Source: a virus
Lineage: Duplodnaviria; Caudoviricetes
Length of the DNA: 38,089 nucleotides
Virus record (IMG/VR): IMGVR_UViG_3300033067_000471
Location: 1-38,089 of that record
Direction: 5' to 3' (one strand)
This document shows positions 5,021-32,167 of the stretch, in pieces. The first letter of the stretch is position 1, and every line of letters starts with the position of its first letter. The notes under the pieces were generated by a model, which was not told the DNA's origin, did not search any database, and was given only the letters and a program-made list of their open reading frames with translations. The translations under genes were made by a program, and so were the position numbers.

Positions 5021-7653
5021 TATCGGCCTCCTGCATATAATCCGCGAGGAATTATTGATAAGATAGACATCGGTTGAGGATCAATTTGTCTTATGAATAC
5101 TCTAGCGTTTTCTTCCCATGTTGCCACAGTACTATGTTTGAATTTTCCCTTAGATAAGTCAATGCCTTCAGTATAGTTTTCAAAATCTCTTTGTTTCATT
5201 TCTGTAAGATTATAAAGAGGGTCTTCATCTGAATTTAAAATATCATCTTCAGGGCACTTTGTTCCAATATACCCACCGCGAGTTTTTTCAACCTGTACAG
5301 TCACTTCAGTAGTTAACAAACTAGCCGCTGCTAATGTTTCACCTTGTACAACATCTATATTTAGCGTTTCAATATCTGAAACAAATGGAAGACCTATGTG
5401 ATAAGTTGTGTACCATTGATTGTTAAAAGTTAATGATCCATTTGTTACTATGTATGTTGTGTAGTTTTCATTCAACGCAGAACCAACTACATATCCATCA
5501 CCGATAACAGAAACTTCTTCGCCTTCTAAATGCCATAAGCCAGTAACCTCATCAACGGCTTCTGCCCATGTTGATATTGCCACCGATCTCATACTTGAAG
5601 GAACTGTTGTTGTCGGTCTACCTGTTGCTACTGTTGGAGATGTGTAGGCATCAATAGTAAATCTAATCAAAGAACCATCAGCTCCAACTAAGTGAATTTG
5701 ATTACCAACTTTTGCAGAAGTAAAATAACTAGCCGACGCTGTTAATGTTAATGTATCAGTGTAAGTCCAGCCAGAGCCACTCAATGTCATAGTCGTCGAG
5801 CCAGTATGTCTGCCATCATAACTCAAAGATGCATCTGTAAAATTATAATCTTTTAGGTCTGAGAAAAATCTATCAGTAAATCTTTCAACATATCTAACAG
5901 TGCGTCCGTTTATAGTTCTTTTAATGCAAAAATAAACATCATTTTTTGATCCATTAGGAACGCTACAAACATTCTCAACTTCTCCACCTTCAAAGTCGTG
6001 GCGAGTCCAAGCAAGCATTTGTTGTTCTTTAATATATGTAAGACTTAATAAAGTTCCATCTGATCTTACAGCCCAAACAATTGAATTAGGAATCTTTTGA
6101 AAAGTCCAGTCTACAATTTCATATCCTTCAAAAAGATGACTTGAAAAATTAGTCAAATCATTTCCTCTATACCCATCAACTTGAAAATCAAAACCTAAAT
6201 CTCTTATAATTGAAGATCCATTTTGCAAATATAAAGCAGAATTATCAATTATGATTGGAGGTGGATTATTAGCAGACCCATTGTAAGAATACTGTTTTAA
6301 ATTAATTTCTGTAGGAGTTAGAACCCCATTTGCATTTCCTTGTGCTACCTTTTCGCCAGTCTCAGTTAATAATATTATGTTTCCCAGATCAATCATATGT
6401 CTTACTGAATTTACCTGATTACCAGATAATGAAAAATCAATAGCGTTGTTGTCCTGTATTGGGAATTCACGTTCAAAATTCTTATATAAACCAGTTTTCG
6501 ATCCCCAAACAGTTTCTGTACTTGTATTAGAATTGGCAAAAAATCTGCGTTGTTGAGAATACAGAACACAAGATGGATAGTTTGGATTAGAAAATAACCC
6601 TCTTGGAGTAAAAGCTGGTGCTGGATCTGAAATATCTGGAGTATATCCTATGTCATTAAAAGATAATGCATTAGTAGTCCCTATAAAACCATATGGGCCC
6701 GATGAATTATCTGATCTATAAATATTGTAATAGCCAGCGCCACTAGCAGCGCCCCATGATGTTTGAATATAATTTGCTACAGTTAATGGACTAACCCCAT
6801 TTGTAATTTGCAAAGTTCCTAAGCCTGTAGACAAGCTCTCTTCAAAAGTTGTGGCACTAACAGCAGTAACTAAATAATAATAGGCAACAGTACCCGCGGC
6901 GCCTACTCTTGTAATTGCTAAAGATGCCTGAGCCACTTGAGTAGGTGTAAAAGATGCATCTGCAATACTCCAGCTGGTATCAGCAGTACGAGAAACTTCG
7001 CGCACTGGATAGCTAGGATGAGCAATCGTAATAACATCAGCAGATTGTGCAAACTTTAGATTAGGCAAATCAGCTTCAGCATAAGTAGTAATTATTTCAT
7101 AAACTTCTTCAAACTGCCCACCAGAAGTATAAGCTGGCAAGCTTGTTGAATTGAAATTAGATCCATCCATATTTAACAGCTGAGCTGTATTAGCACCAGT
7201 ATTTACAGTTCCAATTTTGAAGTTTCTATTATTAAGATAAGTACCTAAAGATCCTGCAAAAGTACTTAGTGCTACTTCGTCGCCAGTAGCTATAGTATCG
7301 GCCCCTGTATAGGTAATAACGGCAGGATTAGCATTAGTTACGCCAGTTATTGCTTGAGCTGTAGTCTTTAATTGTACACCATCTTTGTGTACGCGCATGT
7401 AAAGATTGCCAAACTCTAAAACATAAGTCTGAGAATTGTTAAAAACAAAAGGAATAAATCTAACTGTCTTGGTGGAATCTTTTACTTCTGCAATAAACTC
7501 AGTACCAGATCTGTTCTCAGCTCCACCAGTTTTTTTGATATAAAAATTTCTACATTTTGCAAGTCCTGTAAAATAACGATTGAAATCTGTGCGACCATAC
7601 AAAGAAGGAGAAAGCTCTCCACTAGCCATTGATCTTTGCGCAAGATAAGACAT
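5020..7653 (-). CDS. Tail tubular protein B / nozzle (T7 gp12-like)
   Basis: 877 aa; N-terminal QRSMASGELSPSLYGRTD, YVLEFGNLYMR, AQSADVITIAHP and LAWTRH motifs; FCCH-like insertion ITGVTNANPAVIT. Confidence 0.85.
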   Translation of the reverse strand: MSYLAQRSMASGELSPSLYGRTDFNRYFTGLAKCRNFYIKKTGGAENRSGTEFIAEVKDSTKTVRFIPFVFNNSQTYVLEFGNLYMRVHKDGVQLKTTAQAITGVTNANPAVITYTGADTIATGDEVALSTFAGSLGTYLNNRNFKIGTVNTGANTAQLLNMDGSNFNSTSLPAYTSGGQFEEVYEIITTYAEADLPNLKFAQSADVITIAHPSYPVREVSRTADTSWSIADASFTPTQVAQASLAITRVGAAGTVAYYYLVTAVSATTFEESLSTGLGTLQITNGVSPLTVANYIQTSWGAASGAGYYNIYRSDNSSGPYGFIGTTNALSFNDIGYTPDISDPAPAFTPRGLFSNPNYPSCVLYSQQRRFFANSNTSTETVWGSKTGLYKNFEREFPIQDNNAIDFSLSGNQVNSVRHMIDLGNIILLTETGEKVAQGNANGVLTPTEINLKQYSYNGSANNPPPIIIDNSALYLQNGSSIIRDLGFDFQVDGYRGNDLTNFSSHLFEGYEIVDWTFQKIPNSIVWAVRSDGTLLSLTYIKEQQMLAWTRHDFEGGEVENVCSVPNGSKNDVYFCIKRTINGRTVRYVERFTDRFFSDLKDYNFTDASLSYDGRHTGSTTMTLSGSGWTYTDTLTLTASASYFTSAKVGNQIHLVGADGSLIRFTIDAYTSPTVATGRPTTTVPSSMRSVAISTWAEAVDEVTGLWHLEGEEVSVIGDGYVVGSALNENYTTYIVTNGSLTFNNQWYTTYHIGLPFVSDIETLNIDVVQGETLAAASLLTTEVTVQVEKTRGGYIGTKCPEDDILNSDEDPLYNLTEMKQRDFENYTEGIDLSKGKFKHSTVATWEENARVFIRQIDPQPMSILSIIPRGLYAGGR

Positions 7654-12363: not shown

Positions 12364-14079
12364 TCATTGTTGTGCTCCAGTTAAATTACTAACAACTCTG
12401 CCAAGAGCGTTATCATCTGAAACCTGAGCTTGAGATAAGTCTTTAGCAGCAGCAGCACCTTGTTGAATCATAGCCATTTGCTGCATTTGCTGTTGCTGTT
12501 GAGCTTTTTGCGCTCTAATAGCTGCTACTTCGTCATCTGTGCGAACTTGGTCTGGAGGTATAGATAAACCATCTGCGTAATTATCAATAGTCTGATCTAT
12601 GTTCCACTTATCAGCTGCACTTGGATCAATTCCTATTAATTGAGCCATAACATTCATAAATCTTTCTTGAGCACCCAATCCAATCATTTTTTGGGCTTGA
12701 GCCATAATAGAAATGTACTCAACTTTAAGATCAATACCTTGCAATTCAAGTGGAGGAGGAGGTAGTAAACCTTGGTCTAAGTGGTAAGCAAAAGCTAAAT
12801 CAATAAAAGGATCTAACAAGTCTTGCTCTAATTGAGACAAAACTGGGCCTAATACTAATAGTTTTTCCTGAGAAACTTCGTCAACAAAACGAGCTGTTAC
12901 ATCTTTACCATCTGGATTTGAAGCAAAAGCTATAAATAAGTTAGTAAAGAAACACTCTTTAATTCTGTTTCTTACTTGTTCGTTCTTAGCTTCCATCTCT
13001 TGGATGCGATAATTAACTTCATAGATAGGAGTAAATCCCTCAACATTACGATCAACATAAGTAACGCCACCTGAAACAATAGATCCAGATTGAGCTTTCA
13101 GTGAAGAAGGCCCTTTAAGTGGTGGGCGTACAATTTTATCAATCGCTTCTAATGTACGTTTTTCTCCTAATTGTAATTGCTTAACATCACCTAAACAAAC
13201 CATAGCAGGACAAGAAGTTGCATAAACGTCTTCGCCTGTTACTTGCCAGCGAGGAACTAATACTGGAAAATAATCATATCCCATCTCTCTAAGATATTTT
13301 TCTTTATCTAAGCCAGTAGCAGAAGGATCTGTCTCGTAATAACAAGAAGAAAACTTTTTGTATTTTGATTCTAATCTTTGAGGGTTCCAGTTTGCGTTTG
13401 GTTGAATAATATGACAAATTTCAATCCACAATTCAGTCTGACCTTGTTCGTAATAATTCTTAACCTTTAAAGAAATATTAGACCAATCAGTTATCTTACC
13501 ATCAGCTTCACGACGACCGAATTGCTCAACAATCTGTCTAACAGTCATTTTAAATTCACGAACAAAAACATTAATTCTTCCAAGATAATCTTTAGCTATC
13601 ATGTAAGAGCCGACAGGAAACGACTGACAATGGAAAACATTACCAGTTAAATCAGGCTCTACCGACATCGCAGCAGTTCCAAATACTCCAAGATCTCCGT
13701 AAGTAGTAGGTAAAATATTATATAAATTTGATTTTAAGAAAGTCGTATTCATTATGTTTGTGACTTGATACAACCATCTTTTAACGCTTCCGATTTCATT
13801 CAGCGCTGGATCTGGAGTAGATAATCTAAACCAAGGACGTGCTGGAGATGTAACTCCTGACATCATACCAGAAGCTAATATATTAGCCGATTGAGTAGCT
13901 GTAGAATCAATAATTTTAGTGTTCTTGCGTTGGCCTTTATTGATATCAGAAGTATAAAATCTTGGACGAGTTGGCAAAATATTATCACCTAGTTCTTGCC
14001 ATTGCTGTTTGAAAGAATCTCTTTCAATTCTTAACTGTCCTTTTAATTCGTCATCTTTTTGGCGTTGTGTTTTACTCAC
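12364..14079 (-). CDS. Portal (head-tail connector) protein
   Basis: 571 aa; LASGMMSGVTSPARPWFRL, PRWQVTGEDVY and VEYISIMAQAQK motifs; Gln-rich C-terminus. Confidence 0.92.
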   Translation of the reverse strand: MSKTQRQKDDELKGQLRIERDSFKQQWQELGDNILPTRPRFYTSDINKGQRKNTKIIDSTATQSANILASGMMSGVTSPARPWFRLSTPDPALNEIGSVKRWLYQVTNIMNTTFLKSNLYNILPTTYGDLGVFGTAAMSVEPDLTGNVFHCQSFPVGSYMIAKDYLGRINVFVREFKMTVRQIVEQFGRREADGKITDWSNISLKVKNYYEQGQTELWIEICHIIQPNANWNPQRLESKYKKFSSCYYETDPSATGLDKEKYLREMGYDYFPVLVPRWQVTGEDVYATSCPAMVCLGDVKQLQLGEKRTLEAIDKIVRPPLKGPSSLKAQSGSIVSGGVTYVDRNVEGFTPIYEVNYRIQEMEAKNEQVRNRIKECFFTNLFIAFASNPDGKDVTARFVDEVSQEKLLVLGPVLSQLEQDLLDPFIDLAFAYHLDQGLLPPPPLELQGIDLKVEYISIMAQAQKMIGLGAQERFMNVMAQLIGIDPSAADKWNIDQTIDNYADGLSIPPDQVRTDDEVAAIRAQKAQQQQQMQQMAMIQQGAAAAKDLSQAQVSDDNALGRVVSNLTGAQQ

Positions 14080-14392
14080 CTAGCAACACCTTTTTACCTT
14101 GATCCATTTGACTTGAACCAGATAACCCTGATGTAAGAATTGTTCCAGCGCGGCCACCAACTAAGCTCATTGCCGATTTTTGAGCATTACGTTTTTTCTG
14201 CATATCTAATGTTGCTGCATCTAAAACAGTTTTATTATACAAACGCTTTTCAACGTCTGATTGATAGGCTTGCTGATCTTTTTTTGCTTTATCGGCAGCT
14301 TCTCTAGCCGCCTGACCAGTTAAATTTTTACCTAGGTCGCTTGAAGATAATCCTAGAGTTGCAACACTTAATAAATCTGGAGCTCCTGCCAT
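14072..14392 (-). CDS. Small virion-associated protein (Bbp22-like)
   Basis: Start ATG 14392 after GGAGG; GRAGTILT...KKVLLG C-terminal motif typical of the gene before the portal. Confidence 0.7.
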   Translation of the reverse strand: MAGAPDLLSVATLGLSSSDLGKNLTGQAAREAADKAKKDQQAYQSDVEKRLYNKTVLDAATLDMQKKRNAQKSAMSLVGGRAGTILTSGLSGSSQMDQGKKVLLGE

Positions 14393-14844
14393 TAGCAAAC
14401 CTCCATGATAAAAGATTGCTCTCTAAAAATAAAACCTAATTTTTCTAATGTCTCGCGCTTAACTGGAGACTTGTCCAACAATGAAAAGGTAATCCAATCA
14501 ACGATCTCGCGACCGATACGGATAAATTCCTTTAATAATAAATATCCAGCTCTGCCTTCTCTGTGCTCTACTGATACCCACCAGAACTGCTCTGCTAATA
14601 CTTTAATTTTAGGGTTAAAATGATGAGGCGTAAGAAGACCACATACGAGACCAATCAACTGAGAACCAGCCTCTGCAACTAAGATAATATGATTATCTAT
14701 AATGTTTTGTAATAATGATCTGTTATAGTTTTCGTTATCTCCGAATAAAGATAACTTAGTACCATACATATGAGAAAATTGACGTAGTTGTCCCAAAATC
14801 CAATCAGCATCCGTATCATTTGCAGGACGTATAACTATCGACAT
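14392..14844 (-). CDS. GNAT-family acetyltransferase
   Basis: IRPA...ILVAE...LIG...EQFWWVSVEHREGRAG..LL...EKLGF GNAT pattern. Confidence 0.8.
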   Translation of the reverse strand: MSIVIRPANDTDADWILGQLRQFSHMYGTKLSLFGDNENYNRSLLQNIIDNHIILVAEAGSQLIGLVCGLLTPHHFNPKIKVLAEQFWWVSVEHREGRAGYLLLKEFIRIGREIVDWITFSLLDKSPVKRETLEKLGFIFREQSFIMEVC

Positions 14845-14880
14845 AAGTCAAGACTAGTGTTCTACAAGAGGTGTATGCAA
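14845..14880 (-). promoter_or_regulatory. Sigma70-type promoter, probably leaderless
   Basis: TTGCAT-18 nt-TAGTCT-6 nt-ATG(14844) with no Shine-Dalgarno. Confidence 0.5.
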
Positions 14881-14989
14881 ATAATTATTTCTTAGTCCAG
14901 TGAACAAAAGTAGAACGATATTAATTACTTAACGCACCATCACATAAGATTGACATACTTAAGTCTAGTGATAAACTGACACTGCAATC

Positions 14990-15175
14990 TCACTTCTCTC
15001 CAAGAAATGTATTTGCATAACCCCTAAAAAGGTATAAAGGCTGACAGGATGTTGGTCTTTTTTTTTGACATCTACTTGAGAACCTGTAAAAATAATTTGG
15101 CATACATGTTACTCCATACCAATCGGGCTGGCTAAGGCGGTAATCTTGGCTGGCAATAACTTTAACTCCGATCAT
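14990..15175 (-). CDS. Possible small hypothetical protein
   Basis: ATG 15175 overlaps the terminase 3' end; 61 aa; no recognisable motif. Confidence 0.3.
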   Translation of the reverse strand: MIGVKVIASQDYRLSQPDWYGVTCMPNYFYRFSSRCQKKRPTSCQPLYLFRGYANTFLGEK

Positions 15176-16620
15176 ACTCCTCAAACGGATCATACTCTTT
15201 CTGAACAACTGGTAACTTTATTCCCCACAAGTCTTCGATATTCAGTCCGCGCCCTTCCATCTCAGGTAATGCAAAAGTCAGCATCAGTGCATCTAATCTA
15301 TCAGGCGACCGACCAAGTTTAACTTTAATTTCATCTTTAGGTTCTAAGATCAGTCTTCCACGCTTATCAAAAGTATACTCAGGCGCACAGATCTCGGCTA
15401 CTAGTTCAGGGTCATCAACGATAACACCACCACGCTCTATCCATGCGCATAACCTAAAGTACATCTCAACTCTTATGTTTGCGTATCTATCGTCCATCGC
15501 GCTTTGACTAAAATGAACTTCCTGAACTGCGTGACCCTTTTGTAACATTCCATCGACAACGCCAGATCCAAAGCCGCCTGTGCCATCAATGAACTCCATC
15601 TCAGAACCAAACTTCTCTTTAGCTGCCATCAAGTGATGAACTTGCTCAAACGTCTTAAGATTACGCCACATCTTATAATTCCAAGACATCAACCCCTGAC
15701 GAGGAAAAATCACAGTACTATCATCTCCCTGCCTAGCACAGTCCATACCTAATCTTTTCTGAGCTCCAACATAATCACTAGGTCTAAGCACTCGTTGAGT
15801 TGCCTCTAAAACTTTCTCCCGACTTATCAAGCTGTTCATCGAGTTAGGAGGAAACTGACCAAAAACATTCACTAACACCCAAGGATTATCGCGACCATAC
15901 TTATCTATCTGTTGTTGAGCCCACTCTTTGCTGACCCGAGGAGTGCGCATAGGATCTTCAGGATCACTATTAATATTAATAACATTCCACATCTTCCGAT
16001 CACTAGTTGCAGCAGCATGTAATGGCCCACTTGTGTGAGTCGGGTTCCCTGCAATAACAATGCGACCCATCTTCTTGCCATCACCCATATCGTTCGCTAA
16101 TGCAGCATCGGCAGCAGCTAACACACCAGAAGGAATACCGCCAGCCTCGTCTACTAAGAACAAAATAAAGTCAGCATGAAGACCAGCCAACGTATCTGCC
16201 TGCTTAGTAGCATCTGCATCCTTAGCCCATGTACGAGCCGACATCCACCATGTCTCAGGGAACTCCTTACTAAAAATACGCTTCTTTGTCCAAGTGTACT
16301 GCTCCGACAATCTCTTAGATTTCTGCTGCCACTTCGCCATCTCTGTCCACAGACCATCCGATAAGTTCTGCTCACTAATAGAAGTCGCCGCTATCTTAGG
16401 ATGCGGATGACAGTCTAAAAAGTGCCAAGCAATAATAGCCAATGTTGCAGTCTTGCCTAGGACCCTTGCAGGCTACAAGTGCAGAACGCATGTTCTTCCT
16501 GTAACCGACAAGCGCGACCTTCTGCCACTCATCCAATTCAACACCTAACACATCTTTTGCCCATTTTACTGGGTCTTCTCGCCAGACTCTTATCATCTGC
16601 GGTACTGTTAATTTACTCAT
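15162..16620 (-). CDS. terL: Terminase large subunit, about 485 aa, needing a +1 frame change at 16458
   Basis: Joining ORF 16620-16459 (..ACKGP) to 16457-15162 (GKTATLAIIAW..) restores Walker A. Also present: Walker B LFLVDEA, coupling motif GNP, nuclease LGMDCAR.GDD and C-terminal SPDRLDAL. Confidence 0.9.
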
Positions 16621-16787
16621 GCATTCTCCCAAATAATAAAAATTCCAAAAACACCTAAATACATCACAAGCCTTGTGCTATACAAAGACTCTTCATTATC
16701 AAATCCAAATCTTAAACAAACTTTGTTATTCATAGACTTGCTAACAAAAAATCTAAAACTACTAGGAATAGTTAGGGGTATTATCAA
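16617..16787 (-). CDS. Small hypothetical protein, 56 aa
   Basis: Below the ORF-track cutoff. TTG start overlaps the upstream TGA after GGAGGT; stop overlaps the terL ATG (ATGA). MIIPLTIPSSFRFFVSK...IFIIWENA. Confidence 0.6.
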   Translation of the reverse strand: MIIPLTIPSSFRFFVSKSMNNKVCLRFGFDNEESLYSTRLVMYLGVFGIFIIWENA

Positions 16788-17035
16788 TTCATACCTCCAT
16801 TAACACGCTCAGCAGCCCTCTGGCTAACATCACGCAAATATTCTAATATCACTAAACCCTCGCCTTCTTTAAAACTATCTATAGGAACAGCTCCCATAAG
16901 ATTCGGATTACTGCTAAAAAGCCATCTGTCAACATCAGCATAAGTTCCGTACATCTTATACAAGATATGTATGCAAGCTAATAGCTCCTCAACATTAGTC
17001 TCTGGGATGCTAGCATCAATCTCACTCGGCGACAC
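16784..17035 (-). CDS. Stand-alone Xre/MbcA/ParS antitoxin C-terminal (DUF2384-like) domain protein
   Basis: MYG....VDRWLFSSNPNLMGAVPIDSF..GEG..ILEYL matches the WLxxPNxxLxGxxP pattern. Confidence 0.65.
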   Translation of the reverse strand: MSPSEIDASIPETNVEELLACIHILYKMYGTYADVDRWLFSSNPNLMGAVPIDSFKEGEGLVILEYLRDVSQRAAERVNGGMN

Positions 17036-17591
17036 TAAAGCTCTCCTCTATCATGCGACCCCAGCTAGAACTGCCATCAGACTCACGCTTTTCAGCAAAC
17101 ATCTTCAGATGCTTACCTATGGCCTCTAGAGTCTTATTCTTATCCCATGCATTAACACGCTTCATTTCGCCAACAACTTCTTCACCTTCGCGCACTTCCA
17201 TTATGTCAAACGTCTTAATACAAATAGACGCATACTTGGGCCACTCTGACACTGGCTTAAGCGCACCGCGATCATCTAACACATCCGCAATATCAAACTT
17301 CGAGATCGCCTGAAAAATTGCTAACGTCTCTTCAAACATCCACTCTTCACGAGCTCTTAGTGCCTCATCATAAGCAGCCTTGCGTCCAGCATCTTCCGAT
17401 ATCCACTTACGAGTCGCCATGTGTAAAGATCTAGCTCTGCCTTCGTCACCCTGACATTGCAGCCTACACAACTCTATTAAAGAGCCTCCACACGAAATAT
17501 GGGCCTCAACTTTAGACATACGATCTGGATCTGTGAAAATTGCAACCTCACGATTAATATCAACGCTACTAACTTCTATGTCTGTTGTCAT
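17022..17591 (-). CDS. terS: Terminase small subunit
   Basis: N-terminal HTH-like region, GALKPVSEWP and DKNKTLEAIGKHLKMF motifs; GAGGTG RBS; upstream of terL. Confidence 0.8.
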   Translation of the reverse strand: MTTDIEVSSVDINREVAIFTDPDRMSKVEAHISCGGSLIELCRLQCQGDEGRARSLHMATRKWISEDAGRKAAYDEALRAREEWMFEETLAIFQAISKFDIADVLDDRGALKPVSEWPKYASICIKTFDIMEVREGEEVVGEMKRVNAWDKNKTLEAIGKHLKMFAEKRESDGSSSWGRMIEESFSVAE

Positions 17592-17989
17592 AAGTAGAAC
17601 ACCTCATCGCGCATACGATTTTTTATTTTTTTGTAATAGGAAGACATTGTTGATAAAAATGAAACACCTAGTTGCGCTGAAAAAGTACCGCGGAGAGAAG
17701 GAGGGAGGTATTCAATCCCGCGCAGCAAAAGCGCGGGGGTGGGGGTGGCTCGACGTGTCACAGCTTTTTCATCTCCAATATATTGCTTATGAACATGAGA
17801 ATGATAATCATTTACACGCTCTAATTGAGAATTGTTATCAATTAAAAAGCGCGCAAAGTTATCCACATAAGTTATCCACATACTTTTTAAGTTATCCACA
17901 TGCCTCTGTAACGCTCTAATAAGCCCAAGGTTGAACGATAATATTAAAGTGTGTTCAGCATAAGGGTGTGTATTAGATCTTGCTACCAT
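17588..17989 (-). CDS. Possible 133 aa ORF overlying the regulatory boxes
   Basis: ATG 17989 overlaps the upstream gene end and its TGA overlaps the terS ATG; no recognisable domain. Confidence 0.3.
   Translation of the reverse strand: MVARSNTHPYAEHTLILSFNLGLIRALQRHVDNLKSMWITYVDNFARFLIDNNSQLERVNDYHSHVHKQYIGDEKAVTRRATPTPALLLRGIEYLPPSLRGTFSAQLGVSFLSTMSSYYKKIKNRMRDEVFYL
17717..17748. other. GC hairpin plus G-runs; candidate packaging-initiation or terminus signal
   Basis: CCCGCGC-AGCAAAA-GCGCGGG merging into GGGGGTGGGGGTGG; a GC-rich island about 125 bp upstream of terS. Confidence 0.4.
17797..17844. promoter_or_regulatory. Two Fur-family box-like sites
   Basis: GAGAATGATAATCATTTAC matches 16/19 of GATAATGATAATCATTATC; TGAGAAT-T-GTTATCA (17826-17840) matches 12/14 of the 7-1-7 form. 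Confidence 0.6.
17859..17900 (+). promoter_or_regulatory. Three perfect co-oriented DnaA boxes
   Basis: TTATCCACA at 17859, 17872 and 17892, each inside AAGTTATCCACAT. Confidence 0.8.
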
Positions 17990-18207
17990 AAGCCTATTAG
18001 CTCTATCTCGCATATGTGTGCTGTAGTGTAGTTTATACGGATTGTAAGTCTGTTGTGGCGATTGAATGAATTGACCGCTAAGGCTAGGCCGTTCTTAGCT
18101 TGTCCGTTTTGATAAACAATAACGAGTTTTTGGCCTATTACTTCTAGCATTCTAAAGATTTTATCTTTTTTCTTAAAGTCTTCCCATTTTACAAACTGAT
18201 TGCTCAT
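17983..18207 (-). CDS. Hypothetical protein, first gene of the leftward unit
   Basis: 74 aa ORF starting 6 nt after a -10 element. Confidence 0.55.
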   Translation of the reverse strand: MSNQFVKWEDFKKKDKIFRMLEVIGQKLVIVYQNGQAKNGLALAVNSFNRHNRLTIRINYTTAHICEIELIGLW

Positions 18208-18243
18208 GGGGTCAGCCTAGCAAAATAAAATTGCTAAGGTCAA
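18208..18243 (-). promoter_or_regulatory. Sigma70-type promoter, probably leaderless, with palindromic spacer
   Basis: TTGACC-18 nt-TAGGCT-6 nt-ATG(18207); TAGCAA-N7-TTGCTA inverted repeat across the spacer. Confidence 0.6.
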
Positions 18244-18358
18244 GTCTTGGTCTAGTACACTTCTTTTAGTCTCGCATTAGTGTTGCATTTAGTAGAACGA
18301 AAGTCAATAGCTCAATTTTGACGCGGTCTTACTTTAACATTACGCTAGGTTATTCTTT

Positions 18359-18371
18359 CAAGCTATTGATA
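18359..18371 (-). promoter_or_regulatory. IHF consensus site
   Basis: CAAGCTATTGATA is the reverse complement of WATCAANNNNTTR. Confidence 0.4.
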
Positions 18372-18447
18372 TTATTGATTTATAGCAAAAACCACTGAAA
18401 CTACGCTGATTCCCCAAGAGTCCTAAAGATTTTACATGTTTTATACC

Positions 18448-18718
18448 TAATTGTAACAATAACTAGTACAATTCAATAGTATATAACGTATTTACTTTTA
18501 TCAACTTTAATACTCTCTGATAATTACATATAATGTTGTAATGTTATTGATATCATTGAATAAAATTGCACTTTTGCTCAATAAATAGAGTGGTTTATTA
18601 CACTCAATATAGTAGTTTTTATTATTTATCCACATTGACCAGCTATTTTTGAGCGTATATATTTATTAGTAGTTGTCTTCAATAAGTTCTACACCAGTAA
18701 CAATTATTGTTACAATTA
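18448..18718. repeat. 15-bp perfect inverted repeat with operator-like palindromic arms
   Basis: TAATTGTAACAATAA (18448-18462) and TTATTGTTACAATTA (18704-18718); imperfect extension to about 30 bp. Confidence 0.7.
18626..18663 (+). promoter_or_regulatory. Rightward promoter with a DnaA box abutting the -35
   Basis: TTATCCACA (18626-18634) then TTGACC-17 nt-TATATT. Confidence 0.6.
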
Positions 18719-29606: not shown

Positions 29607-30002
29607 ATGTCTGAAAAAAACCTAATAAACGAAGTCGGATTATATTTTACTTCTATTGGTGGCAGGATTTTCCGCAATAATATCGGACAAGCTTGGCAAG
29701 GCAGAGGAAAACCATTCAGAGCACAGATGCCAGTTTCAGTTAGACTTAACGCTGGAGATATAGTTTTAAGATCAGCAGTACCTATTAAGTATGGGTTATG
29801 TGTAGGTTCTGGAGATCAAATAGGTTGGAGACCTTTAAAAATAACTCAAGAAATGGTTGGAACTACTATTGCTCAGTTTGTTAGTATAGAATCTAAATAT
29901 GGTGGTACACTAACAACGCCTGAACAAATAACATGGAGAGATAATGTAAACAAAGCTGGAGGCTTCGCTCGAATCATACATTCGATTGAGGAGTTGAAGT
30001 GA
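29607..30002 (+). CDS. VRR-NUC domain nuclease
   Basis: FRNNIG, GLCVGSGDQIGW, IESK, EQ..W...V..AGG. Confidence 0.8.
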   Translation: MSEKNLINEVGLYFTSIGGRIFRNNIGQAWQGRGKPFRAQMPVSVRLNAGDIVLRSAVPIKYGLCVGSGDQIGWRPLKITQEMVGTTIAQFVSIESKYGGTLTTPEQITWRDNVNKAGGFARIIHSIEELK

Positions 30003-32167
30003 ACTTAGTAATCGACTTCGCATCAATAAGACAAGACTTGCTTAATCTTCAAGGATCAGTGCTGCCAGAATTATTACCATCGGGTAAACTTATCGGTGAG
30101 CATTGGGTTTGTGGCGACATTTATGGGGGCTCAGGAAATAGTTTTAAATTCAACACTTCTACTGGAAAATGGCGTGACTTTGCTCAAGAGGGCGTAAGTG
30201 GTGGAGATATTATAGCTTTGTTTGCTATGCAGAAAAATATCAACATGAAAGAAGCAGCTATACAACTAAAAGAAAAATACTTAGGAGTGGAAGTTGCTAA
30301 ATTTAATTATCCAGTTAAACCTAAAAAAGATCCGATAAGTGTTATAAAACCTCCTGTCACAGCAGCTAAACCTAAAATACCAAACAATTGTCAGTATTGG
30401 GAATACAGAGACCAATCTGGTGATCTTTGTTTTTATGTGGTTAAAGGCTTTAATGAAGATGGTAAAAAGTTTTTCTATCCTTTAACATTTAGTAATACAA
30501 ATGAGTGGGTTAAAAAGGGCTGGCCTGAACTAAAACCTCTTTATAATGTACAAAATTTAACTAATAAACCAGTTATGATAGTAGAAGGCGAGAAGTGCGC
30601 AGATGTATGTATTAAATTCTTTAATCAATATGACGTTGTTTCTTGGGCTGGTGGTGCTGGCGCATGGAAACAATCGGATTGGTCTATACTCAAAGATAAA
30701 AAAGTTCTTATTTGGCCTGATGCTGATGAGGTTGGGAATACAGTTGCTACTCAGTTAAGTCATTATTTGAGAGAAATATGTTCTCAGATTAAAGTTATAC
30801 ATACAGACAAAACAGATGGTTGGGACGCATATGATGCTATGGTTCACGAGAGTTGGAATTTTAGCAAATGGGCGTTGTGGGCCAAGCCTTTATTATCTCA
30901 GTGGGATAGACCAGTTGAAGTTCAAGTATTAGAGCCCGAACCACAAACAGTAGAGTCTAAAGAGATATCAACTGACGAGTTCCCAATTCAGCCCAACATG
31001 AAAATGCTTTTTGATAAGCTAGATTTACAGATTGGCCATAACGGACAAGTCGTAATGAATGCTTCAAATGTAGCTAAGATTCTTAAAAGCCAAATGGCTA
31101 ATCTTGTTTGGAGAGATACTTTTTACAATGCAAACATGACTAAGTGGCAAACAGGAGAAGATCGTATATGGTCAGATGAAGACACTAATAATTTATTTAT
31201 TAAAATGCAGATACATTACGGACTTGCAAAATTGACAAAGAATCACGTTGAAGATGCTATTAATTTTGTGGCAGCTCAAGATAAAAGAAATGAACCTAAA
31301 GATTGGGTTAATAGTTTAAAATGGGATGGAATTCATAGAGTTGATAATTTCTTTAGAGATGTTATGAAAGCAGTTGGCCCAGAGGACTATGTAAAATGCA
31401 CCAGTAAAAACTTTTGGATCTCATTAGTTGCTAGAATACTAGATGCTGGATGTCAAGTAGATGAAATGATAGTTTTAGAATCAAAAGAAGGAACTTATAA
31501 AACATCAGCATTATTAGCAATTGCTGGAAAATGGTACGGCAAAGCTGGAAAAGATTTAAAGAATAAAGATTTTGACCAAGGTTTAGTTGGTAAAATACTA
31601 GTAGACTTTTCAGAGTTATCATCATTAAAGAATTCTGACATCGAATTGGTTAAGGATATGATTACTTGCAGAGAAGATCAGTACCGACCATCTTATGGCA
31701 GGAGGACTGAGAAGTTTCCAAGAACTTGTGTATTGGCAGGGACAACTAATGAGTCCGATTATTTAAGGTCTATGACAGGAAATAGAAGATTTAATCCTCT
31801 ACCAGTAGGAAAAGTTGATTTAGCTTATATTAAAATGCACAGAGAACAACTTTTTGCAGAAGCTGCTTATAGATATAAAGCTGGTGAAACTTGGTGGGAG
31901 TATCCAGAGTCAGCAGAAAAGATAAGAGAGTCCAGAAGACAAGTAGATTCTTGGGAATCAATCATTGAAGATTCAGTTGGAAGAAGTCCTCTTAATACTA
32001 TATTTATGCAAACAAAAGACATTTGGATACATTGCTTTAATGGTGATATTGAAAAATTAGACAGAACGACACAATCCAGAATAGGAAAAATAATGAGAAA
32101 ATTGGGCTATGAAAACGTAACTACATCTTTAGGTGGAGTTTCAGTTAGAACATGGAGAAAATTATGA
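29999..32167 (+). CDS. Primase (TOPRIM) fused to VirE/VapE-type helicase
   Basis: GKWRDFA..GGDII N-terminus; VEGEKCAD, WAGG, WPDAD TOPRIM motifs; WDG..R, YRPSYGR, GTTN..YL...TGNRRF, QLFAEA VirE motifs. Confidence 0.9.
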   Translation: MNLVIDFASIRQDLLNLQGSVLPELLPSGKLIGEHWVCGDIYGGSGNSFKFNTSTGKWRDFAQEGVSGGDIIALFAMQKNINMKEAAIQLKEKYLGVEVAKFNYPVKPKKDPISVIKPPVTAAKPKIPNNCQYWEYRDQSGDLCFYVVKGFNEDGKKFFYPLTFSNTNEWVKKGWPELKPLYNVQNLTNKPVMIVEGEKCADVCIKFFNQYDVVSWAGGAGAWKQSDWSILKDKKVLIWPDADEVGNTVATQLSHYLREICSQIKVIHTDKTDGWDAYDAMVHESWNFSKWALWAKPLLSQWDRPVEVQVLEPEPQTVESKEISTDEFPIQPNMKMLFDKLDLQIGHNGQVVMNASNVAKILKSQMANLVWRDTFYNANMTKWQTGEDRIWSDEDTNNLFIKMQIHYGLAKLTKNHVEDAINFVAAQDKRNEPKDWVNSLKWDGIHRVDNFFRDVMKAVGPEDYVKCTSKNFWISLVARILDAGCQVDEMIVLESKEGTYKTSALLAIAGKWYGKAGKDLKNKDFDQGLVGKILVDFSELSSLKNSDIELVKDMITCREDQYRPSYGRRTEKFPRTCVLAGTTNESDYLRSMTGNRRFNPLPVGKVDLAYIKMHREQLFAEAAYRYKAGETWWEYPESAEKIRESRRQVDSWESIIEDSVGRSPLNTIFMQTKDIWIHCFNGDIEKLDRTTQSRIGKIMRKLGYENVTTSLGGVSVRTWRKL

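Follow-up and report, generated by a model that had tools for sequence, protein, structure and literature searches.

Gene and frame layout of the terminase locus

We analysed a 38,089-bp phage contig, hereafter the window (36.6% GC, without terminal repeats and about 89% complete), which carries a podovirus-like structural module, RecE/RecT, a helicase and a primase. The large terminase gene, terL, lies on its minus strand (16620–15162; a first-pass annotation of this DNA did not give the strand). The gene is divided between two reading frames by one surplus base inside the Walker A motif. The features of the locus are as follows.

16396..16620, minus strand: terL ORF1, zero frame; codons 1–54 encode TerL through ACKGP and are followed by 20 unrelated codons and UAA; 74 aa
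15162..16457, minus strand: terL ORF2, +1 frame; Walker A GKT onward, 431 codons; 87% identity to the continuous relative P0125
16458..16458, minus strand: the surplus A of the mRNA, located between the Walker A codons for Pro and Gly
16455..16461, minus strand: putative +1 shift site CCU-AGG-C, with CCU in the P site, AGG in the A site and CUA then GGC as the +1 codons under the proposed mechanism
16462..16464, minus strand: E-site codon GGU (Gly53), reachable by two weaker extra hairpin pairs (probabilities 0.70 and 0.75)
16465..16512, minus strand: predicted mRNA hairpin core of 19 bp, whose 3' end is the last base of Lys52; extended to 16515–16462 it has 21 bp
16474..16518, minus strand: cluster of lineage-private amino-acid changes, codons 35–49, overlapping the hairpin
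16473..16475, minus strand: UAG closing the +1 frame upstream, which confines a shift to a few codons
17022..17591, minus strand: terminase small subunit gene (terS), intact

The mRNA across the junction reads GCC UGC AAG GGU CCU A GGC AAG ACU (CCU, 16461–16459; A, 16458; GGC, 16457–16455), letter for letter as the first-pass annotation gave it, and its account of the frames also held. Skipping A16458 yields a 485-aa TerL with ACKGP-GKT intact and the terminal stop as its sole stop, and this product is colinear with P0125 (486 aa). Read in the zero frame, the gene yields a 74-aa peptide that stops at 16396, and the +1 frame is shut just upstream by the UAG at 16475–16473, downstream of which it stays open for 431 codons to 15162. 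As is generally expected of a programmed frameshift, a single shift restores a full, conserved protein. The CCU/A/GGC junction is the only placement that restores ACKGP-GKT; the surplus base can also be parsed as U16459 added to CCA, with an identical product. By inspection we rejected shifts at AAG or AGG and a hop from GGU to GGC, because an invariant Walker A residue is lost, and we rejected an intron because the surplus is one base only.

The two chains could in principle work as a split terminase (74 aa plus 426 aa) that needs no recoding, with a TTG at 16442 as the start of the 426-aa product. However, that product begins past GKT, so the Walker A lysine is in neither chain, and no clear ribosome-binding site precedes the TTG. 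We give this arrangement almost no credence.

Between terS and terL lies an 83-aa ORF (16784–17035, minus strand) whose match to the Xre/MbcA/ParS antitoxin C-terminal domain is weak and does not reach the cut-off. Upstream of terS we noted copies of TTATCCACA, a motif that we take to be the DnaA box: three are clustered at 17859–17900 (plus strand) and a fourth is at 18626–18634, with another at 257–265. The five matches in the window compare with 0.81 expected, and none of 100 shuffles held as many. The cluster is a possible DnaA-dependent origin or titration site.

Assembly support for the extra base

The extra base is present in a second assembly. Logan contig 1 of run X1 (3,105 nt, depth 7.5) shows no other letters and no gaps across 13497–16601, although X1 is possibly the source run, in which case this contig is not independent; the comparison is of contigs only. 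The X1 contig terminates about 120 nt from the extra base, and contigs of run X2 give no cover there. Short foreign pieces matching near the site belong to other organisms and were discarded. A further X1 contig, over terS and its upstream region (16577–18412), has a depth of 14.7 versus 5–7.5 in other long contigs; this could reflect terminal redundancy, an origin, or words common to other organisms.

These data bear on two ways in which terL could be misread or dead. The first is an error of the library or the assembly where cover is thin, perhaps induced by an inverted repeat, in which case the true gene is continuous. A depth of about 6–7.5, several contig breaks (one at 16577–16601) and the possible non-independence of X1 speak for it; the presence of the base in both assemblies speaks against it, as does the sequence context, which is not a homopolymer, as first noted. 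The second is that the insertion is real and inactivates terL, the genome being defective or a prophage in decay; the agreement of the assemblies is compatible with this. Of 16 related records, 3 have an integrase above cut-off, so that temperate phages may be among the relatives, and the window, being 89% complete, could lack its own. On the other side, no integrase was found in the window, and no further lesion was seen in the genes checked: among window genes with relatives in the fetched loci, where cover outside the structural module is thin, no other gene is frame-split.

Reading frame of terL in relatives

We compared the junction with that of relatives. P0125 (87% identity, two contigs of up to 45,298 bp) and P0006 (75%) both encode ACKGPGK[TS] in one frame. 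The closest annotated terminases in the phage collection are PHROG 2 and 5902 and those of Xanthomonas CP2-like podoviruses (about 48% to P0125); the terL matches of the latter are in one piece, unlike the gene studied here. All 48 loci examined are in frame, 45 being continuous and three carrying an intein after the Walker A lysine (these were drawn from 49, with L038 excluded since its match begins past the site). Half-motif scans gave the same picture: 112 of 120 loci in the first were terL and all 112 were in frame, the remaining eight not being terL, and in the second every one of 120 terL loci was in frame. Overall, 245 distinct intact junctions were seen in 393 loci. The motif is intact in 119 of 121 proteins, the exceptions being this fragment and an apparent intein remnant. 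Among shorter TerL fragments, 51 of 118 begin before Walker A; 47 of them fit the motif and four are in-frame variants.

The break itself was not found again. A pattern with one extra base had no matches in viral contigs versus about 320 intact ones, and its 119 matches in genomes included no terL at E<0.1 (39 of the 119 had short flanks only; equally short terL control loci were detected in 120 of 120 cases). A pattern with a variable insert had two matches, neither of them terL. We set aside 15 further pattern matches as apparent mis-parses of intact GGG AAA codons (L023 was checked directly, and most others belong to sets found in frame). A metagenome scan with P0125 as query returned relatives at 29–52% only. 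No similar DNA was found in the phage collection, no Pfam family matched TerL, and the 74-aa peptide had no relative among proteins of 40–130 aa. In these searches no second genome with the hairpin-bearing allele described below was found, and the break was not conserved in independent genomes.

Taken alone, continuous relatives suggest an error or a dead gene. The first-pass annotation had proposed looking for homologous terL genes with the same break and had counted uniformly continuous close homologues against recoding; no such gene was found, and the close homologues are all continuous. This is not decisive, because in the published case of terL recoding no more than 3 of 100 related genes are affected (PMC10732093). 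Moreover, the protein collection contains no continuous copy of this allele, and the 90% protein cluster consists of only this fragment and P0125, which does not favour an error.

Broken singleton copies of terL are common. Nine of 31 other matches to the 74-aa peptide exit the TerL frame, at scattered places, and 503 other core-gene copies hold one other frameshift and possibly a second break; such isolated breaks add to the case for an error. One singleton, P0138 (66 aa, from a 1,497-bp ENA contig), is a TerL fragment that exits the frame directly past ACKGP, and decoding of its tail places it in the other shifted frame, opposite to that of this phage. Among portal genes, that of L005 has a frameshift at about 5189–5216 and that of L044 an apparent interruption. 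Intein-like inserts lie directly past the Walker A lysine in L031, L032, L041, L406, L468 and L487, with both ends visible in the first three only; the position is a known intein insertion site (PMC5050341). We considered a homing-endonuclease repair scar, as the inserts of these six relatives lie 6 nt downstream of the extra base, and rejected it since it leaves the hairpin unexplained.

A predicted mRNA hairpin abuts the E-site codon

An mRNA hairpin that the first-pass annotation had not seen is predicted immediately upstream of the extra base. The hand-chosen 54 nt at 16515–16462 have a predicted folding energy of –25.8 kcal/mol (z –4.27), which none of 200 shuffles attained, and a fixed 60-nt window over the hairpin gives –26.1 kcal/mol (z –3.9). 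The 7,947 other in-frame coding 60-mers tested are all less stable, the runner-up reaching –23.0; among 1,337 sampled coding windows z is –3.9 or lower in five, none of them more stable than –17.2 kcal/mol. Synonymous re-coding attains the stability of the hairpin in 0 of 3000 and 1 of 3000 trials, and re-coding of either relative's residues in 0 of 3000. The 19-bp core pairs codons 37–41 in register with codons 52–48, and codons 42–43 with 46–45, at pair probabilities of at least 0.93, and its stem includes G:U pairs and bulges. The core terminates on the last base of Lys52, which is directly 5' of the E-site codon when CCU occupies the P site.

The signal is specific to one strand and one chemistry. 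RNA of the opposite strand has z –1.24, and folding as DNA gives z –1.43 and 0.06 on the two strands, none of which is significant. These values suggest an mRNA structure rather than a DNA palindrome or an effect of sequencing chemistry. Downstream of the site no notable 3' structure was found (z –1.18), the region had no match in Rfam, and no terminator-like site was found near the break.

The equivalent place in 235 intact relatives has a mean z of +0.21, with one at or below –3.5. That one is L496 (72% GC, intact terL), where a hairpin with z –4.9 lies in a similar position upstream of Walker A, possibly as a precursor state or by chance. The 3' part of terS (17135–17076, minus strand) contains a second strong hairpin (–20.8 kcal/mol, z –4.6) and no break, so hairpins occur also without recoding.

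Two points here speak against an error: if unrelated to the hairpin, it would have had to strike no more than a few bases from the foot of the strongest one seen in coding sequence, and the structure is not significant as DNA on either strand. Under an error the hairpin would have some other role, such as RNase III processing or damping of terL translation. All in all, we judge an error in a continuous gene unlikely.

Lineage-private changes cluster in the hairpin codons

Changes private to this lineage are concentrated in codons that form the hairpin. We counted as lineage-private the positions where P0125 and P0006 agree and this phage's TerL differs; 7 of 12 such comparable positions at codons 35–49 are changed versus 25 of 362 elsewhere (Fisher P-value = 1e–5 for the chosen window; permutation P-value = 0.003 for any window). 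Over these codons the protein is identical to P0125 at 5 of 15 positions, against 368 of 421 downstream, and P0125 and P0006, though more distant, share 12 of 15. Paired hairpin codons hold six of the seven private changes. V38, G39, S46 and V49 each occur in at most 1 of 115 family proteins, and two others of the seven, L37 and K42, are common in the family. The changes sit in both arms of the stem and spare the conserved N43, R45 and A47. We infer that the lineage altered residues so as to pair with the fixed Walker A codons, and the hairpin is apparently under selection. Together, the predicted hairpin and the clustered changes provide what is expected of a stimulator of frameshifting, namely a suitable distance from the site and evidence suggestive of selection.

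Template switching can yield clustered changes plus an indel. A real inactivating insertion, as introduced above, could accordingly have arisen along with the inverted repeat by quasi-palindrome template switching. However, the stem, with its G:U pairs and bulges, reaches significance only as coding-strand RNA, and changes in both arms that spare conserved residues such as N43, R45 and A47 are better explained by selection on a translated mRNA than by a single copying event. An inactivated terL is in our estimate improbable.

The CCU-AGG-C site

The heptamer is only modestly unusual and by itself says little. With at most one mismatch allowed, 0.34% of 5,592 simulated single-base insertions in terL match CUUAGGC and 7.4% match any of eight known shift sites; 2.7% produce Pro followed by a slow codon. 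Any A between the CCN and GGN codons of the family yields CCN-AGG. The likeness to the Ty1 site proposed in the first-pass annotation extends to six of the seven bases of CUU-AGG-C, but the mismatch alters the P-site tRNA and leaves the likeness weak. The phage +1 shifts at Pro codons to which it also pointed use, in those described in a review, CCC then U, not CCU-A (PMC5009743).

In line with its remark that AGG is often rare, AGG makes up 13 of 151 AGR codons, versus 23–34% in other A/G-ending pairs, and is avoided in late genes, being absent from eight of nine structural genes, though terL itself has three in-frame AGG codons. Tandem AGG-AGG occurs at codons 568–569 of the primase-helicase gene (29999–32167, plus strand); this motif is shift-prone in E. 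coli (PMC5009743). The zero frame continues for 20 codons past AGG, so the A site holds no stop codon of the kind found in prfB. No internal Shine-Dalgarno (SD) sequence was found at the prfB spacing: pairing is worth +0.5 kcal/mol at 3 nt and –4.3 kcal/mol only at 0 nt, where it comes from the Lys-Gly codons of the family. Re-pairing of tRNA-Pro(UGG) from CCU to CUA, also proposed earlier, is kept as a step of the mechanism but would be weak, since it needs a G:U pair at the middle position.

Full-length TerL might also arise in other ways: tRNA-Pro could read CCUA as four bases, the hairpin could make RNA polymerase skip one base, or compensatory shifting could occur at a low level irrespective of AGG. 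All of these give the identical protein and fit the hairpin position, and mitochondria are known to offset single-base inserts by compensatory shifting (PMC5009743). On the other hand, there is no repeat for transcriptional realignment and no tRNA gene in the window. The window has 37 other in-frame CCU-A sites, all without AGG and one of them 20 codons downstream, which need normal reading, so CCUA cannot be a code-wide quadruplet. We consider these routes together very unlikely.

Proposed hairpin-stimulated +1 frameshifting as the best explanation

We propose that a programmed +1 frameshift at CCU-AGG-C, stimulated by the predicted 5' hairpin, gives rise to the full 485-aa TerL, and we assign this reading a probability of about 0.68. 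Recoding at this site, as the first-pass annotation suggested, thus stands as the best explanation, but its main ground is the hairpin next to the E site. In the proposed sequence of events, the ribosome would pause with peptidyl-tRNA-Pro on CCU and a presumably slowly read AGG in the A site. As Lys52, the last stem codon, leaves the E site, the stem would zip up against the E-site codon and push the ribosome forward, a role analogous to that of the internal SD duplex in prfB. The tRNA-Pro(UGG) would then re-pair on CUA and GGC would be read next, giving the exact family motif. Unshifted ribosomes would make the 74-aa peptide, without the Walker A lysine.

There is experimental precedent for such an action. 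On CUUUGA in a 70S system, and only when RF2 was absent, a stable hairpin placed upstream next to the E site brought the +1 shift to about 60% of the level driven by an SD; a destabilised stem fell far short of this (PMC6321510). In yeast, an upstream hairpin stimulated +1 shifting at a weakened Ty1 site, and the stem was proposed to reform once its last codon exits the E site (PMC3639245).

Several observations weigh against a +1 shift: the continuous terL genes of the relatives read, the weak re-pairing, the lack of an A-site stop, of an SD at prfB spacing and of notable 3' structure, the three in-frame AGG codons of terL, the frequency of broken singletons, the L496 and terS hairpins in unbroken genes, and the single genome that carries the break. 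The effect of the shift would likely be a low terminase output, and a coupling to Arg-tRNA supply is possible. Sensing of Arg-tRNA and evasion of Avs defences, offered earlier as purposes, are guesses; Avs2 is able to recognise some terminases (PMC11564622). A fuller version of our proposal has a natural bacterial-type +1 shift driven by a hairpin that refolds behind the ribosome, arising recently in one lineage through amino-acid rewriting and gating packaging on Arg-tRNA supply. We advance it tentatively, at slightly short of even odds.

Comparison with known recoding systems

In Streptomyces, Hau3, prophage StrepC.1 and an S. catenulae prophage have UUA-triggered translational bypassing in terL, with 7–10 non-coding nt at UUA in three genomes (3 of 100 related genes) and some experimental support (PMC10732093). 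As in Hau3, an essential terL is interrupted here (there between KGWG and K, a junction that probably corresponds to Walker A), with a rare codon at the break, RNA structure nearby and rarity among relatives. Unlike in the bypassing described for Hau3, the surplus here is one base at CCU-AGG rather than a 7–10-nt insert starting with UUA, the TerL family is a distant one, and the case is a prediction from one genome.

The prfB (RF2) site CUU-UGA shares with the proposed one a short zero-frame ORF, an obligatory +1 shift and a duplex abutting the E site, and a slow A site would be a further parallel (PMC5009743). It differs, as described there, in that its duplex is an SD-rRNA pair and not an intramolecular hairpin, and our site has a sense codon in the A site and CCU in the P site. 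Engineered and SARS-CoV-derived upstream hairpins, which act with 70S ribosomes and, in yeast, at a site derived from Ty1, resemble the predicted stem in ending at the E-site codon and in their +1 direction; the natural role of the SARS-CoV hairpin is to damp a –1 shift (PMC3639245, PMC6321510). Those reported were synthetic reporters, whereas ours would be natural, obligatory and in a phage gene.

With Ty1 and ABP140 (CUU-AGG-C) the site shares six of seven bases, AGG in the A site and GGC as the +1 codon (PMC5009743), but it has a Pro rather than a Leu P-site codon and a bacterial host, and Ty1 by that account needs no structure. Listeria phages PSA, A118 and A500 (CCC-UGA, CCC-UCC) are likewise phages that shift +1 with peptidyl-tRNA-Pro (PMC5009743). 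Unlike here, their reported sites are CCC plus U, and the shift extends a structural protein that is already complete, whereas CCU-A shifting would be needed for the enzyme itself. A further report (PMC12846349) has tail chaperones as its subject. Overall, the proposed mechanism resembles that of prfB, with a hairpin replacing the SD duplex, and that of Hau3 in its target, but is a member of neither; the P-site features of Ty1 and the Listeria phages are absent.

Implications

A 2016 review states that 5' mRNA structure 'perhaps' stimulates +1 frameshifting, and refers to synthetic tests only (PMC5009743). Our search of the open-licence literature turned up neither a +1 shift at CCU-AGG in terL nor a bacterial case in nature of +1 shifting with a 5' hairpin. 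If true, the present reading would supply such a natural and obligatory case within about 60 nt, directly testable with one reporter. It would also be a warning against dismissing single-base 'errors' in essential phage genes, since these can reflect genuine recoding, and would mean that RNA structure together with local protein divergence can make recoding detectable from even one genome. For terminases, it would add CCU-AGG as a new shift site and a second route, after Hau3 bypassing, by which their synthesis is throttled at the P-loop. Together with Hau3, the P-loop of the terminase would then be a repeatedly invented translational checkpoint.
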